This document shows, in pieces, positions 2,302-41,757 of a stretch of 64,000 bases of DNA. Position numbers and translations under genes: made by a program. Numbering within the stretch: position 1 is the stretch's first letter; each line of letters starts with the position of its first letter. Below the pieces are notes generated by a model that was not told the origin of the DNA, made no database searches, and worked only from the letters and a program-made list of their open reading frames with translations. Source of the DNA: Escherichia phage S143_2; sequence record MZ189261.1; one strand, written 5' to 3'.

Positions 2302-3123
2302 ATGTTTGGTTATTTTTACAACTCGTCGTTCAGGCGATATATCACAATGATGGGCGATTTGTTTTCAAATATCCAAGTTAACCGTCAATTGTCTACAGGC
2401 AATAAATTAATTAGAGTTCCTATTACGTACGCATCTAAAGAGCACTTTATGATGAAACTTAATAAATGGACCTCTATAAACTCACAAGAAGATGTGGCTA
2501 AAGTCGAAACTATTCTACCACGTATAAATCTCCAAATGGTAGATTTCGTTTATAACCCAACGTTTAAAACGAATATATTGAATAACTCTCTTTTGAGTAA
2601 ATCGACTAAGGATATTGTAGACCAATACAACCCATCACCAATTAAAATGATTTTTGAACTGAGCATCTTTACTCGTTATGAAGATGATATGTTCCAAATC
2701 GTTGAGCAAATTATTCCATATTTTCAGCCGCATTTTAATACGACTATGATTGAGCAATATGGGCAGGATATTCCATTTGAAAGGGATATTAAAGTCGTAT
2801 GGATGGCAGCATCAATGGATGAACAAATAGACGGTGATAATTTATCTCGTCGACGTTTAGAGTGGTCATTAACATTTGAAGTAAATGGATGGATGTATCC
2901 TCCGGTAGGCGCAGCAGAAGGCCTTATTAAAACGACTTATCTTGATTTTCATGCTAATGAACGAGACCTTCAATCAGCCGCCAGCGTTTTTGAATCAGTT
3001 GATACAGAAATTAAACCGAGAGACGTTGAAGCACAAGATTGGAATGGCGAAGTTGAACAAACTTATACTCATGATATTCCAATCCCGACTCCACCAACCC
3101 CTCCTGGTCCTAGAAAACAATAA
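2302..3123 (+). CDS. 15: Tail sheath stabiliser / tail completion protein gp15
   Basis: MFGYFYNSSFRRY... matches T4 gp15; second ATG chosen because AGGAG is 5 nt upstream of it. Confidence 0.88.
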   Translation: MFGYFYNSSFRRYITMMGDLFSNIQVNRQLSTGNKLIRVPITYASKEHFMMKLNKWTSINSQEDVAKVETILPRINLQMVDFVYNPTFKTNILNNSLLSKSTKDIVDQYNPSPIKMIFELSIFTRYEDDMFQIVEQIIPYFQPHFNTTMIEQYGQDIPFERDIKVVWMAASMDEQIDGDNLSRRRLEWSLTFEVNGWMYPPVGAAEGLIKTTYLDFHANERDLQSAASVFESVDTEIKPRDVEAQDWNGEVEQTYTHDIPIPTPPTPPGPRKQ

Positions 3124-5449
<2,326 letters not shown>

Positions 5450-36776: not shown

Positions 36777-36939
36777 TATAAATTCTCTTTAAATGAAAAT
36801 GCAGGACTTATTGACATTGCCTGCTCAAGCCCTCAAGGGGAACATAGGTTTTGGATATTTAACGACAGGATAACCATAAACCCGTCATCATACCGACCAC
36901 GACTTACACAGCTAACATTTTGCTGACGCATGATAGTAA

Positions 36940-37188
36940 TTATTTCAAAGTAATAACAAAATGACGAACTGCTTTACGTGCTGCAGAAGCCAGAGGCTTA
37001 GCATATTTCAATTCATCTTTCTGGACCAGGATATCGCGAAGATCGGCTTGTGCTGGATTCAGATGTTTGAAATACTGTAAGATTTCAAGAGCTTCGGCTT
37101 CAACATCAATAGATGCGCCGTAATTGTCATGGCCATTATTCCATGCATGGCGTTGCAGTTCAAGAGCGTGTTGTAATTGTTTAATCAT
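36940..37188 (-). CDS. rIII: rIII lysis inhibition accessory protein
   Basis: 82 aa; MIKQLQHALELQRHAWNNGHDNYGASIDVEAEALEIL... matches T4 rIII as recalled. Confidence 0.9.
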   Translation of the reverse strand: MIKQLQHALELQRHAWNNGHDNYGASIDVEAEALEILQYFKHLNPAQADLRDILVQKDELKYAKPLASAARKAVRHFVITLK

Positions 37189-37702: not shown

Positions 37703-38011
37703 TTACATAAGAAGCAAACGTTCCACCGGAGTACCATCAACCGAAATTACTTTATCAAGGCGGAAAGAACGCCACTGACCTAACTTGGTGTCGAATGCTC
37801 GAGCTGATTCACGAGGTTCATAACGAACTTCTGTTGCTGGATTGTTATTTTCATATTTGACTTCAAGTTCATCGCGCGAAGCAAACATAGTGCGTACCTC
37901 GCCGTTAGCCTTTTCAAATACAACACAATGAACGCCTACAGACAGAATAGTTTTAATACGTTCACGAAGAACCATAGTTTCTTGTTCAGTTAAAATCATA
38001 TTATTCACCAC
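37703..38011 (-). CDS. Hypothetical protein (102 aa), 31.1 position
   Basis: ORF between cd and gene 31. Confidence 0.5.
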   Translation of the reverse strand: MVNNMILTEQETMVLRERIKTILSVGVHCVVFEKANGEVRTMFASRDELEVKYENNNPATEVRYEPRESARAFDTKLGQWRSFRLDKVISVDGTPVERLLLM

Positions 38012-38582
38012 AAAAGTTTCGGATTTGTTCCCAATTCAGAGAACGAAGATTATTACGAGAGTACTGAATTACTTCAATACCGGCTTGTTTTAGAATGTCT
38101 GCCCAATTTTCAGGAGATCTGTCATATAATTCTGCGTATACAACCTTTTTAATACCTGACTGCGTAATAGCTTTAGTGCAATCAGGACATGGAGAAAGCG
38201 TCGTATATAACGTAGCACCTTCAATAGAATTACCTTTACGAGCTGCAAACAAAATTGCATTCAATTCTGCATGGATTTCATTATTAGCAGACCATGCACT
38301 ATGAGCGGCCCGATGTTCTTTAGCCAAAACAAAATTATCTGCCCGTCCAAATGCTGTAGTGCCTTCTTTATGTCCAGCAACGATGACCGGACTTGGTTTA
38401 TTCTTCAACCAACCGTTTTCGGATGCATGTTCGCAACAGTTTGTACCACCTGAAGGAGAGCCATTATAACCTGTAGAAATAATGCGTCCATCTTTTTCAA
38501 TGACTGCGCCAACTTTCCATGAACAACATTTTGATTCTTGAGAAATCAGATATGCAATCTGAAGGTATGTGCTAGCTTTCAT
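38001..38582 (-). CDS. cd: dCMP deaminase
   Basis: 193 aa as in T4 Cd; zinc-binding HAELNAI and SPCPDC motifs. Confidence 0.9.
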   Translation of the reverse strand: MKASTYLQIAYLISQESKCCSWKVGAVIEKDGRIISTGYNGSPSGGTNCCEHASENGWLKNKPSPVIVAGHKEGTTAFGRADNFVLAKEHRAAHSAWSANNEIHAELNAILFAARKGNSIEGATLYTTLSPCPDCTKAITQSGIKKVVYAELYDRSPENWADILKQAGIEVIQYSRNNLRSLNWEQIRNFCGE

Positions 38583-39574
38583 TATTGAACCTTATTAATA
38601 TAAGTTAACAGCTCTTTAGTTTGTTCCCAACTGATGCACGCATCGGTAATGGAAACGCCATAGGACATATTATCAGAAATTTTTTGATTTCCTTCATGTA
38701 GGAATGATTCTATCATAATTCCTTTGACCAAATCATTAGCTGCTAAATTTTTACCAATACCAATTTGATTGCTATAATACCCATCAGCGTTTGCGTGGCT
38801 ACAGTCAACCATTACATAATGATTCAGACCTAATGCACTTGCTTTGTTAGAAGCTTCTTGAATATCAGAAGAATGATAGTTCGGGCCGTTAGTCCCGCCA
38901 CGCAATACGATATGCGTATTCTGATTACCTTCAGCTTCAACAATGCCTACAGTACCATCGACGTCCATACCCATATACCGATGAGGCCAGGCGGCACTAT
39001 ACATCGCGTCTGTAGCTACTTTAATAGAACCATTGGTTGCGTTCTTGAAGCCTACGCACATCGGTAGACCTGAAGCAATTTCACGATGTGTCTGACTTTC
39101 AGTCGTACGGGCGCCAATAGCAACCCATGAGAAAATACCAGAAAGATACTTAATCGTGAATGGGTCTAATACTTCAGTTGCTAATGGAAGTCCCATACGT
39201 AGAAGTTTACGACACAATGTTCGTGCAACTATAAGACCGTGGTTCATATCAAAACTTCCGTCAAGATATGGATCATTTACAAGACCTTTCCAACCTACGG
39301 TAGTTCGAGGCTTTTCAAAATAAACGCGCATCACTAACAGAACATTAGGAAGACGAGTTTGAAGTTCAGCCAGACGTTTGCCGTATTCAACAGCAGCAAT
39401 AGGGTCATGAATTGAACAAGGACCTACAACAATAAGTTTGCGTGGGTCTTCACCGTTCATAATCGAATTAACTTGTTCGCGATGAGAAGCCACTTGTGAT
39501 GCGTAAGCTTCCGACAAAGGAATAATCTCAGCCAGTTCTTTTGGAGAAATAAGTTTTCTGACGACAGGTAACAT
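38582..39574 (-). CDS. 3-deoxy-D-arabino-heptulosonate-7-phosphate (DAHP) synthase, class I (AroG/AroF/AroH-like)
   Basis: 330 aa; LIVVGPCSIHDP, VMRVYFEKPRTTVGWKGL, AIGARTTESQ, DCSHANA, MIESFLHEGNQ and SITDACISW blocks align to E. coli AroG/AroH as recalled, including the four metal-ligand positions (Cys, His, Glu, Asp). Confidence 0.88.
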   Translation of the reverse strand: MLPVVRKLISPKELAEIIPLSEAYASQVASHREQVNSIMNGEDPRKLIVVGPCSIHDPIAAVEYGKRLAELQTRLPNVLLVMRVYFEKPRTTVGWKGLVNDPYLDGSFDMNHGLIVARTLCRKLLRMGLPLATEVLDPFTIKYLSGIFSWVAIGARTTESQTHREIASGLPMCVGFKNATNGSIKVATDAMYSAAWPHRYMGMDVDGTVGIVEAEGNQNTHIVLRGGTNGPNYHSSDIQEASNKASALGLNHYVMVDCSHANADGYYSNQIGIGKNLAANDLVKGIMIESFLHEGNQKISDNMSYGVSITDACISWEQTKELLTYINKVQ

Positions 39575-39694
39575 AACAATCCTTAGGAGATATAAACAGA
39601 TTCTGATTCAACAATACCTTTAACCGGATTAGACAGGCTAAGTTGGTAGTGCTAAGATTTATGACCATTCTCGATAGTAATGAGATAGCTCTCA

Positions 39695-39931
39695 TTATAG
39701 TGTTCCATATACTCGAGTTGCTTCAACAAGACCATCACTGCCTAATTTAAGGCTAGTAATCTGGTCACCATCTTTAGGATTAACGATTATGAGAAAAGAA
39801 CGAGGAGATTCTTGAATAACTCGTAATGTTGCATCTTGGAAACGTTCAGACACTTTATTGATGAGTGCTTGAGCAAATTCTTTTACTTTAATCTGAAATT
39901 CGTGTACTGTAATTGGGTTTTCACTTAGCAT
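39695..39931 (-). CDS. Hypothetical protein (78 aa)
   Basis: ORF downstream of an early promoter; followed by the ATGAGAG-CTAT-CTCTCAT hairpin at its stop. Confidence 0.5.
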   Translation of the reverse strand: MLSENPITVHEFQIKVKEFAQALINKVSERFQDATLRVIQESPRSFLIIVNPKDGDQITSLKLGSDGLVEATRVYGTL

Positions 39932-39959
39932 TTCTATTTCCTCATTTGTTGGTAGAGTT

Positions 39960-39989
39960 ATAGTATCACAACTCCACCATGTTGTAAAC
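39960..39989 (-). promoter_or_regulatory. Early promoter GTTTAC-N18-TACTAT
   Basis: On - strand GTTTACAACATGGTGGAGTTGTGATACTAT; likely promoter for the 78-aa gene and the DAHP synthase downstream. Confidence 0.45.
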
Positions 39990-39991
39990 CA

Positions 39992-40267
39992 TTAAATTGC
40001 TTTGCATTCAATTTTTTGTGTACCGAAATTGATATCACATTGGATAACTAAATCGCCGTCAAGATCAAATACCACTATGACGTGTGCAGACCCAGGGAGA
40101 AGAGTAATAGCAATAGAATCTACTTGGTCTGGGAGCAAAGCATTGAGTACATGAGTTAGTTGAGCATGAACTCTGAGTTCGGCTGCATTATCAAGCACTT
40201 CAAACATATTATTAGCAATAATCTGACTGAAGACTACCTTTACAATTTCAGAATAAGTTGGGAACAT
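39992..40267 (-). CDS. Hypothetical protein (91 aa)
   Basis: ORF in the cd to pseT variable region. Confidence 0.5.
   Translation of the reverse strand: MFPTYSEIVKVVFSQIIANNMFEVLDNAAELRVHAQLTHVLNALLPDQVDSIAITLLPGSAHVIVVFDLDGDLVIQCDINFGTQKIECKAI

Positions 40268-40670: not shown

Positions 40671-40671
<1 letters not shown>
40480..40671 (-). CDS. Hypothetical protein (63 aa)
   Basis: ORF whose start overlaps the pseT stop. Confidence 0.45.

Positions 40672-41757
<1,086 letters not shown>

Follow-up and report, generated by a model that had tools for sequence, protein, structure and literature searches.

Gene organization and transcription of the locus

The window analysed here is a 64,000-nt stretch of the genome of Escherichia phage S143_2 (record MZ189261.1). 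In its pseT-cd region, a DAHP synthase gene lies between a cd.2-like gene and cd, in the slot that cd.1 occupies in T4 (Table 1). The 330-aa minus-strand open reading frame was found exactly as originally predicted, with an ATG start; it opens with the earliest start codon that follows an upstream stop and therefore cannot be extended upstream. The prediction also held that T4 has only small open reading frames at this place, and these are cd.1 to cd.5, located between T4 cd and pseT. The TAA stop codon of the DAHP synthase gene shares one base with the start codon of cd (TAATG), an overlap that makes co-transcription of the two genes probable and translational coupling of cd to the DAHP synthase gene possible.

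Table 1. Features of the DAHP synthase locus (window coordinates)
Feature	Coordinates	Strand	Basis
cd, dCMP deaminase, 193 aa	38001..38582	-	ORF and Pfam
DAHP synthase gene, class I-alpha, 330 aa	38582..39574	-	ORF and Pfam/NCBIfam/PDB matches, alignment, predicted fold
Codons of shortened N-terminus, residues 1-10 (MLPVVRKLIS)	39545..39574	-	
Spacer, 120 nt, cd.2-like gene to DAHP synthase gene	39575..39694	-	
Shine-Dalgarno sequence AAGGA	39580..39584	-	5 nt before ATG, direct sequence reading
cd.2-like gene, 78 aa, DUF7320	39695..39931	-	ORF, Pfam, T4 comparison
Early-type promoter, GTTTACA - 17 nt - TG-TACTAT	39960..39989	-	Promoter scan and T4 likeness

The original prediction placed the gene under an early promoter upstream of the cd.2-like gene, and a promoter-like site (TTTACA-17-TACTAT, with TG upstream) is present there, at 39988..39960. 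Taken alone, this site is a 9/12 match, and promoter-like sites in the region are no commoner than in shuffled sequence. The segment from 39925 to 40010, however, matches almost base for base the T4 cd.3/cd.2 intergenic region, in which the T4 record places the early promoter Pe133295, and the window, T4 and RB69 are almost identical across the region of that promoter. In agreement with the original prediction, we found no convincing promoter belonging to the gene itself: in the 120-nt gap upstream of it, the coding strand shows nothing promoter-like and RNA folding is not significant (fold z-score -0.70). Rfam gave no match in the whole window, and no terminator-like site was detected on the minus strand from 39960 to 38001. 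It is thus likely, from this arrangement, that the DAHP synthase gene is transcribed early and together with cd; transcription would start at the conserved promoter, the presumed early transcript would open with the cd.2-like gene, and cd.2 and cd would be read jointly with the DAHP synthase gene.

Identity and catalytic residues of the encoded enzyme

The product of the gene is a full-length class I-alpha DAHP synthase. The 330-aa phage protein matched the Pfam family DAHP_synth_1 (PF00793) with E = 1.7e-74 (250.6 bits against a cutoff of 25.5), the NCBIfam aroFGH equivalog TIGR00034 with 426 bits (cutoff 173), PRK12755 with 454 bits (cutoff 343), and the structure of E. coli AroF (6AGM) with E = 1.5e-104. 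These profile and structure matches lie far beyond chance and span the protein above curated cutoffs, so that its assignment to the class I DAHP synthases along the full length, proposed from the sequence alone, can be upheld. The proposal had further likened the protein to AroG and AroH; the whole-length alignment stands, but the nearest E. coli paralog is AroF instead (51% identity, against 47% for AroG and 44% for AroH). Isozyme-specific NCBIfam scores, given for the AroH and AroG models in a listing that has no AroF-specific model, fall below their cutoffs (384.7 bits against 463 and 362.3 bits against 568, respectively).

All four motifs quoted in the prediction as carrying the metal ligands occur in the translation (GPCSIHDP at residue 51, DCSHANA at 257, MIESFLHEGNQ at 287, and SITDACISW at 308). 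On proper alignment the Cys-His-Glu-Asp tetrad is retained, with C53, H260, E289 and D311 corresponding to AroG C61, H268, E302 and D326. This tetrad is invariant in 127 of the 127 full-length sequences compared, a set that does not include the 182-aa fragment P0070, which reaches only the Cys position. The PEP-site residues (R83, K88, E134, G154, A155, R156, K177, and R225) are likewise conserved, as is the erythrose-4-phosphate motif KPRT (K88-P89-R90-T91), and five phage genera share all metal, PEP and erythrose-4-phosphate residues with the three E. coli isozymes. The KPRT motif separates DAHP synthases from KDO8P synthase; this motif and a TIGR00034 score far above cutoff ruled out KDO8P synthase or another PF00793 member.

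The AlphaFold model of the monomer (pLDDT 92.6) superimposes in Foldseek on solved DAH7PS structures from N. meningitidis and E. coli, with a TM score of 0.96 and 1.4 A rmsd. The model is a (beta/alpha)8 barrel with a beta6a/beta6b hairpin insertion (strands 198-203 and 209-214), and this hairpin, which forms the inhibitor pocket, is kept without indels. Judging from these conserved features, the phage enzyme very probably catalyses the formation of DAHP from PEP and erythrose-4-phosphate.

Distribution and evolution of the phage clade

A DAHP synthase gene in T4-like phages is already known. The original prediction left it undecided whether the gene was documented in close T4 relatives, which 212 phage records and the PHROGs database show it to be. 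Identical or near-identical proteins are encoded in 212 deposited phage genomes from at least five T4-like genera, and every one of the 212 matching records covers at least 80% of the protein; those of Escherichia phages SF, PHB12 and TH58 are 100% identical to it. Many records annotate the gene as phospho-2-dehydro-3-deoxyheptonate aldolase, aroF or AroG, and several GenBank records label it 'aroF, Tyr-sensitive'. The profile phrog_5045, which PHROGs lists as an auxiliary metabolic gene family, matches residues 1-330 on profile positions 8-337 of 341 (E = 8.6e-182, 604.5 bits). A full-text literature search returned only passing mentions of the phage gene, in two papers, with no biochemical, genetic or functional study, and no enzyme assay, expression data or knockout phenotype for any member of the clade.

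By locus comparison, the gene has the same pseT-cd position in Mosigvirus, Kanagawavirus, Marfavirus, Winklervirus and Bragavirus. It is absent from T4 and RB69, and because these phages do without it, the gene is dispensable under laboratory conditions. RB69 lacks it naturally; most other Mosigvirus genomes have it. No other shikimate or folate biosynthesis gene was found near the locus in the approximately 45 kb of annotated sequence inspected in the close relative SSE1.

The phage clade was recovered as monophyletic in 190/200 NJ bootstraps, or in 173/200 once the pocket columns had been masked, and has diverged to 53% identity. It is under purifying selection, with dN/dS between phage genera of 0.14-0.23, values for which synonymous sites are saturated. 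This constraint, the intact catalytic residues and the predicted DAH7PS barrel all favour the earlier view of a catalytically competent enzyme rather than a decaying fragment. The GC3 of the phage gene is phage-like (0.29, against 0.51 in E. coli aroF), and no bacterial homolog with more than 55% identity to the phage protein was found. We suggest that the gene was acquired long ago by an ancestor of several T4-like genera, and has since been kept in the pseT-cd early region.

A remodelled regulatory site and a shortened N-terminus

Although the prediction of a plain DAHP synthase was correct as to identity, an altered allosteric site and N-terminus had gone unseen. An unbiased scan compared the phage clade with 98 bacterial homologs for columns that are fixed in both groups yet different. 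Only six such columns exist, at AroG positions 150, 151, 155, 180, 209 and 223. The phage protein has I141, K142, G146, P171, Y200 and A214 there (P150I, Q151K, D155G, S180P, F209Y, and T223A in AroG numbering), and these phage residues are present in none of the 98 bacterial homologs. Among the 120 best hits in a 5.8-billion-protein database, the combination I-K(R)-P-Y at AroG 150/151/180/209 is found in the 24 full-length phage-clade proteins, with the exception of P0022, in which P150 is kept; the clade fragment P0070 has I-K-P at the three positions that it covers. The bacterial proteins among these hits, about 95 in number, all have P/V-Q-S/T-F instead. Five of the six fixed differences fall among 11 AroG residues named as regulatory or feedback-resistance residues (PMC9529685), a coincidence with a hypergeometric P of about 1e-7.

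The second alteration is at the N-terminus, where 8-12 residues precede the equivalent of AroG P19 in the phage clade (24 full-length proteins and the fragment P0070), as against 16-53 in the 98 bacterial homologs. The phage-clade N-terminus is thus shorter by about 8-10 residues, and the phage protein begins at about the start of strand beta-0 of AroG and AroF. This protein has no counterpart of AroG residues 1-8/9, D6 and D7 among them, or of AroF N7 and N8; the extension at the N-terminus by which a subunit completes its partner's inhibitor site is therefore missing throughout the phage clade. The pocket itself is not degenerate, being more conserved than the remainder of the phage protein (entropy 0.15 bits, versus 0.91 bits for the whole protein, in the phage clade). 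At AroG position 211, which sets Tyr-type apart from Phe-type enzymes, the clade has Gly, as do Tyr-sensitive enzymes. From these data we conclude that the regulatory site has undergone clade-specific remodelling.

Among other viral copies, S180P and F209Y also occur together on the 262-kb jumbo-phage contig L029, and S180P in Aeromonas phage HJ05; NJ support bearing on whether these two arose convergently or are remotely related to the T4-like clade is 13-71/200. Independent phage acquisitions were considered as a test of convergence, and proved mostly unusable: the 'Acinetobacter phage MD-2021a' contig has cobalamin genes and looks bacterial, and two 'Bacteriophage sp.' contigs from faeces lack both verification and annotation. 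About 70 IMG/VR contigs have the canonical site or differ from it at one position; over half of them are giant-virus MAG bins.

Proposed role of the phage enzyme

Class I-alpha enzymes sense Tyr, Phe or Trp via the regulatory apparatus that is altered here. In the phage enzyme the active site is intact but this apparatus has been rebuilt: the N-terminal residues with which one subunit closes the inhibitor pocket of the other are missing, and I, K, P and Y stand in place of the residues that hold the inhibitor (AroG P150, Q151, S180, and F209), with G and A in place of D155 and T223. Given the loss of N-terminal closure and the replaced pocket residues, the enzyme is predicted to be insensitive to Tyr, Phe and Trp, none of which would inhibit it; on sequence grounds we regard this insensitivity as rather probable. 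Entry of carbon into the shikimate pathway is controlled at this first step, so that a deregulated enzyme produced early in infection would sustain the flow to chorismate, and onwards to aromatic amino acids and perhaps pABA and folate, after the host has lost the power to adjust expression of its own aroF, aroG and aroH. Our main reading, to which we give a probability of roughly 0.6, is accordingly that of a catalytically active DAHP synthase, expressed early, which does not respond to Tyr, Phe or Trp and keeps chorismate supplied with carbon after host shut-off. That a supply of aromatic precursors is the selective benefit is a more tentative suggestion, which we think somewhat less probable than not.

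A new ligand or a structural role would explain the high conservation of the pocket no less well than a simple loss of regulation would. The enzyme may still be allosteric, with the pocket re-specified, through Lys for Gln, Tyr for Phe and the loss of acidic residues at the N-terminus, for a ligand that is not an aromatic amino acid; this could be, for example, a pathway intermediate without an amino group or a metabolite peculiar to infected cells. If the binding site had simply been lost, constraint on it should have relaxed, and yet the six positions, like the rest of the pocket, show practically no variation in a clade that has diverged this far, with the beta6a/beta6b hairpin of the pocket retained without indels. 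We nevertheless consider a different effector unlikely, because the N-terminal segment of the partner subunit that closes the pocket is gone, the same region is the tight-dimer interface, so that its conservation can be structural, and no candidate ligand is indicated by any data. A related and equally speculative thought is that the T4-like phage DAHP synthases constitute a natural, undescribed subclass of class I-alpha in which an aromatic-amino-acid sensor has been converted, and not just broken. The pocket could have been remodelled at six fixed positions and then frozen, as a self-filled lock that leaves the enzyme permanently active; alternatively, a new effector could couple entry into the shikimate pathway to the state of the infected cell. 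Were such a conversion real, the recurrence of S180P and F209Y would imply that this state is favoured by selection among phages generally.

A feedback-insensitive enzyme serving aromatic amino acids must also be weighed against an active enzyme selected for nucleotide metabolism, a role that we likewise think improbable. Either chorismate would be used for pABA and folate in the reactions of the phage td, frd and hydroxymethylase products, as the original prediction speculated, or the enzyme would act as an erythrose-4-phosphate sink, pulling the non-oxidative pentose-phosphate pathway towards pentose phosphates. The T4-like gene is indeed fused into the transcription unit of cd, whose product is a dCMP deaminase; the related gene on the jumbo-phage contig overlaps a thymidylate kinase gene; and in SSE1 the genes td, frd and nrdAB are within a few kb of it. 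The early regions of large phages are rich in nucleotide genes anyway, however, which makes two such neighbourhoods weak evidence; moreover, folate is recycled and the cofactor is required in small amounts, and the inspected part of SSE1 contains no pab or fol biosynthesis gene.

Less probable still is that the phage protein is an ordinary Tyr-sensitive isozyme of the AroF type, and merely provides more of a host-type enzyme. AroF is its closest E. coli paralog, Gly is present at AroG position 211, and the GenBank label cited above says as much; against this, the main-chain inhibitor contacts of AroF, Q152 and S181, are changed to Lys and Pro, AroF P151 and F210 are changed to Ile and Tyr, N7 and N8 are absent, the phage residues occur in 0/98 bacterial homologs, and the AroH and AroG isozyme models score below their cutoffs. 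Finally, a functionless passenger, that is, a recently captured host gene now decaying, would agree with the non-essentiality implied by T4 and RB69 but is effectively refuted by the conservation data (the dN/dS values, catalytic residues all kept across five genera, fully phage-adapted codon usage, and no bacterial protein more than 55% identical) and is extremely improbable.

The presence of the gene is no news, as it is already catalogued; it is the regulatory change that could matter. DAHP synthase acts as the valve on the flow of carbon into aromatic compounds, and feedback-resistant versions of it have been the object of industrial engineering effort. A whole phage clade appears to have naturally evolved such a version, by a specific and conserved solution. 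If this is true, the phage gene would illustrate cleanly how a virus can override, by means of one early gene, the allosteric control that its host exerts on a biosynthetic pathway, its product would be a ready-made deregulated class I-alpha enzyme, and the 'Tyr-sensitive' labels spreading through phage annotations would need correction. The absence of the gene from RB69 and its presence in most other Mosigvirus genomes provide a convenient comparison for any fitness benefit.

Comparison with known enzymes

The annotated homologs in Mosigvirus and other Straboviridae, grouped in phrog_5045, are the same gene as that of the window, with no difference; their existing annotations are silent on the altered regulatory site, and some assert Tyr sensitivity. 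The E. coli enzymes AroF (6AGM/6AGL), AroG and AroH align with the phage protein over the whole length, have identical metal, PEP and erythrose-4-phosphate residues, and share the same barrel with its beta6a/beta6b insertion. The phage protein differs from them in an N-terminus shorter by about 9-10 residues, in two small internal deletions (of 5 and 3 residues) and in the six substitutions described above, and its gene has phage codon usage and is without a TyrR- or TrpR-controlled promoter.

Several laboratory variants are feedback resistant. In AroG, P150L is fully Phe-resistant, S180F, F209A and F209S are also resistant, and Q151/Q152 and S180/S181 are inhibitor contacts (PMC9529685); AroF without Ile11 is feedback-resistant (PMC10729320); and yeast Aro4p without residues 1-20, or with Q166E or S195A, is described as not regulatable (PMC9733642, citing Hartmann 2003). 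These variants of AroG, AroF and Aro4p are altered at the same positions and in the same N-terminal element as the phage protein, in which, by contrast, the changes are natural, combined (six substitutions and a truncation) and long fixed. The replacements themselves also differ (P150I and not P150L, S180P and not S180F, F209Y and not F209A), so that feedback resistance of the phage enzyme is extrapolated from these mutations.

The PhzC-type (type IIB) DAH7PS of Pseudomonas aeruginosa is an extra isozyme without aromatic-amino-acid allostery, through which chorismate supply escapes the control of primary metabolism (PMC6435475). It belongs to the type II class, with less than 10% identity to type I, lost its regulation through omission of helices alpha2a and alpha2b and a new dimer, and serves phenazine biosynthesis, with no virus involved. 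As a deregulated extra isozyme, however, it follows the same logic as that proposed here for the phage enzyme.

Identity and prior record of the gene

The 330-aa protein matched Pfam DAHP_synth_1 (E = 1.7e-74). It scored 426 bits with TIGR00034, the NCBIfam equivalog for aroFGH, and 454 bits with the subfamily model PRK12755, both well over the respective cutoffs of 173 and 343; it scored under the cutoffs of both isozyme-specific NCBIfam models, AroH and AroG. The closest solved structure was that of E. coli AroF (6AGM; E = 1.5e-104, residues 7 to 327 aligned). The four motifs quoted in the original prediction were all found in the translation, and all four metal ligands, all eight PEP-site residues and the KPRT motif are conserved. 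An AlphaFold model built from a 40-sequence alignment (mean pLDDT 92.6) agreed with solved class I-alpha DAH7PS structures (TM 0.96, 1.4 A). Together, the profile, structure and residue evidence establish that the DAHP synthase proposed from sequence alone was a real observation, correctly interpreted. Its class therefore stands, but AroG and AroH, originally taken for comparison, are not its nearest relatives: against references from the annotated E. coli K-12 genome, AroF is the closest paralog (51% identity), followed by AroG (47%) and AroH (44%).

The gene itself is already catalogued. A tblastn search of 50,697 deposited phage genomes recovered full-length copies in 212 records, 139 of them at least 95% identical to the window protein and four 100% identical (Escherichia phages SF [two records], PHB12 and TH58). 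Shigella phage SSE1, which is classified within the species Mosigvirus JS09, shares 98.6% identity with the window over the 5.5 kb that surround the gene. Many records annotate the product as phospho-2-dehydro-3-deoxyheptonate aldolase, DAHP synthase I alpha, aroF or AroG, and the protein matches PHROGs family phrog_5045 (E = 8.6e-182), categorized there as “moron, auxiliary metabolic gene and host takeover”. These 212 records and phrog_5045 answer affirmatively the earlier question of whether close T4 relatives document the gene. In the literature, a DAHP synthase gene is mentioned in passing in the genome description of phage phiC120 (PMC8022965), and a Klebsiella phage paper refers, also in passing, to the Kanagawavirus DAHP synthase as an auxiliary metabolic gene (PMC11845039); our full-text search turned up no study of any phage DAHP synthase at the biochemical, genetic or expression level.

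Genomic context and expression

Features of the pseT–cd region in the window
Feature	Coordinates	Strand	Position or basis
pseT, polynucleotide kinase/phosphatase	40671..41570	-	
Two small overlapping ORFs, 74 aa and 63 aa	40275-40671	-	cd.3-like gene to pseT
cd.3-like gene, DUF7355		-	5' of promoter-like site
Promoter-like site	39989-39960	-	between cd.2-like and cd.3-like genes
cd.2-like gene, DUF7320	39695..39931	-	5' of 120-nt gap
Gap, 120 nt		-	between cd.2-like gene and DAHP synthase ORF
Ribosome-binding site AAGGA	5 nt 5' of DAHP synthase ATG	-	sequence
DAHP synthase ORF	38582..39574	-	330 aa, ATG start, TAA stop
cd, dCMP deaminase	38001-38582	-	next gene after DAHP synthase; Pfam dCMP_cyt_deam_1

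The DAHP synthase stop codon shares one base with the cd start (TAATG). Because the ORF listing opens each frame at the first start codon past a stop, no N-terminal extension of the DAHP synthase ORF is possible. The SSE1 annotation places a 41-aa ORF inside the 120-nt gap, in a frame that is not among the intact ORFs listed for the window, and a 55-aa window ORF (39528..39695) overlaps the DAHP synthase start in a different frame; probably neither is a gene. A Pfam search with the 74-aa and 63-aa ORFs returned no match, and the 63-aa ORF lies at the position of cd.4 in T4 and RB69.

The promoter-like site (GTTTACA-17 nt-TG-TACTAT) matches the consensus at only 9 of 12 positions, and such sites are no commoner in this region than in shuffled sequence. 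The surrounding 60 nt are near-identical to the cd.3/cd.2 intergenic regions of T4 and RB69, and the T4 record places the early promoter Pe133295 within that region, in agreement with the early promoter originally proposed here. No terminator-like site was found on the minus strand from the promoter through to cd. Given the homology to T4 and RB69, the predicted early co-transcription of the gene with cd.2 and cd is well supported. The 120-nt gap contains neither a promoter nor significant RNA structure, consistent with the claim that the gene has no promoter of its own.

Distribution and evolution

Five genera have the gene in the same place between pseT and cd: Mosigvirus (the window and SSE1), Kanagawavirus (Enterobacter phage Entb_45), Marfavirus (Klebsiella phage F48), Winklervirus (Serratia phage X20) and Bragavirus (Proteus phage PM2). 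It is accessory, as T4 carries a small unrelated cd.1 in this slot (T4 locus L010 3197-3535 vs. window 38582-39694), and RB69, the type Mosigvirus, has no DAHP synthase gene, its cd.2 directly abutting cd (RB69 locus L011 7252-7503). The gene is found in most other Mosigvirus genomes, making its presence or absence polymorphic within the genus. The cd protein is 193 aa in the window and in T4, and 169 aa as annotated in RB69 (L011 6743-7252), a difference that may be linked to the differing upstream junction. The window/SSE1 alignment, elsewhere 98–99% identical, has a single break in its 5.5 kb, at ~36939-36940 between the 30.9-like ORF and rIII, where the window has ~106 bp fewer.

Searching 5.8 billion proteins revealed a gap between the phage clade (319–343 aa, at least 57% identical) and all bacterial proteins (341–385 aa, at most 55% identical). 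Of 200 NJ bootstraps, 190 recovered the clade as monophyletic, and 173 still did so with the pocket columns masked. Between genera, dN/dS is 0.14–0.23, with synonymous sites saturated, and GC3 is 0.29 for the phage gene vs. 0.51 for E. coli aroF. The acquisition is old and maintained by purifying selection, and present-day hosts were not its source.

Remodeling of the regulatory site

Class I-alpha enzymes bind their inhibitor in a pocket that one subunit forms and the partner subunit's N-terminus closes. All phage-clade N-termini start ~8–10 residues after those of AroF, AroG and AroH, and equivalents of AroG D6/D7 and AroF N7/N8 are missing. AroF without Ile11 is feedback resistant (PMC10729320); yeast Aro4p, according to the citation of Hartmann et al. 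2003 in PMC9733642, loses regulation when its first 20 residues are removed or when it carries Q166E or S195A, residues that correspond to AroG Q151 and S180 by a constant offset of 15.

We searched an alignment of the phage clade (28 sequences) and bacterial homologs (98 sequences) for columns that are near-invariant within each group but differ between them. Only six emerged (AroG P150->I, Q151->K, D155->G, S180->P, F209->Y and T223->A), and the phage residues at these columns occurred in 0 of the 98 bacterial sequences. Five of the six fall within the 11 AroG regulatory or resistance residues named by an engineering study of DAHP synthase feedback resistance (hypergeometric P about 1e-7; PMC9529685). 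That study describes AroG P150L as completely Phe-resistant and S180F, F209A and F209S as resistant; it places Q151/Q152 and S180/S181 in contact with the inhibitor and has D155 making a stabilizing salt bridge (PMC9529685). The partner in that bridge is likely Lys K128 (our numbering), a position that varies within the phage clade. A single protein from phage-like metagenomic contigs, P0022, is intermediate, retaining P150 with K151, P180, Y209 and a 12-residue N-terminus.

Mean entropy within the phage clade is 0.15 bits for the pocket vs. 0.91 for the whole protein; the pocket is not decaying but was rebuilt and then frozen. Judged from sequence, the combined changes speak strongly against ordinary inhibition by Tyr, Phe or Trp, our main mechanistic claim, to which we assign a probability of about 0.65. 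The main rival is that the frozen pocket serves as a site for a new effector; it is also possible that it locks the active state structurally, or that it reflects constraint at the dimer interface. The non-obvious addition here is the clade-specific rebuilding of the allosteric site together with the shortened N-terminus, which predicts that the enzyme is feedback-insensitive or differently regulated, and makes “Tyr-sensitive” database labels doubtful.

Other viral DAHP synthases

IMG/VR yielded 80 DAHP synthase loci. All 10 T4-like loci have the signature I-K-G-P-Y-G-A, and the ~70 others are canonical (P-Q-D-S-F-G-T) or one position off; more than half of these ~70 come from giant-virus MAG bins, and some are ~650-aa fusions. 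In the fusion ORFs (~630–680 aa; L058, L067, L070, L077, L079, L081, L084-L086, L088, L092 and L093), a canonical DAHP synthase domain is followed by an additional C-terminal portion; the ORFs lie on contigs that are in the majority from giant-virus MAG bins and are assigned as viral by bin.

Partly similar alteration (P-N-H-P-Y-G-S) is seen at L029 and L030. L029, a 262-kb jumbo-phage contig (3300028829_003504; positions 2971-4663), has S180P and F209Y; its DAHP synthase gene has a topoisomerase-IB-like gene (phrog_23460) upstream and overlaps, at its 3' end, a gene for thymidylate kinase. Aeromonas phage HJ05 (79 kb) has the signature A-H-P-P-V-A-T in a different gene context. Its enzyme (L008 3399-4562) is divergent (41% identical to AroG) and has a long N-terminus as annotated; with A/H/P/P/V at AroG positions 150/151/155/180/209, it too is without the canonical pocket residues. 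By NJ trees, the L029/L030 and HJ05 lineages could be either convergent with the T4-like clade or its distant relatives. The phage collection also includes the 13-kb “Acinetobacter phage MD-2021a” contig (CAKLQH020000056.1), in which aroF lies beside an alpha-ribazole phosphatase gene and cobS, cobT and cobU; it looks like a piece of bacterial chromosome wrongly binned as phage.

Possible physiological role

In enteric bacteria, entry to the shikimate pathway is controlled at the DAHP synthase step (PMC9529685, PMC11845039), so a lone deregulated copy, expressed early, would sustain chorismate production after host expression is shut off. The benefit may lie in aromatic amino acids, in pABA/folate, as originally suggested, or in removal of erythrose-4-phosphate or PEP. 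The joining of the gene to cd in the window, and the overlap of its L029 relative with a thymidylate kinase gene, hint weakly at nucleotide metabolism. PhzC of P. aeruginosa offers a characterized bacterial parallel: this additional isozyme is unregulated and releases the supply of chorismate from the control of primary metabolism (PMC6435475).
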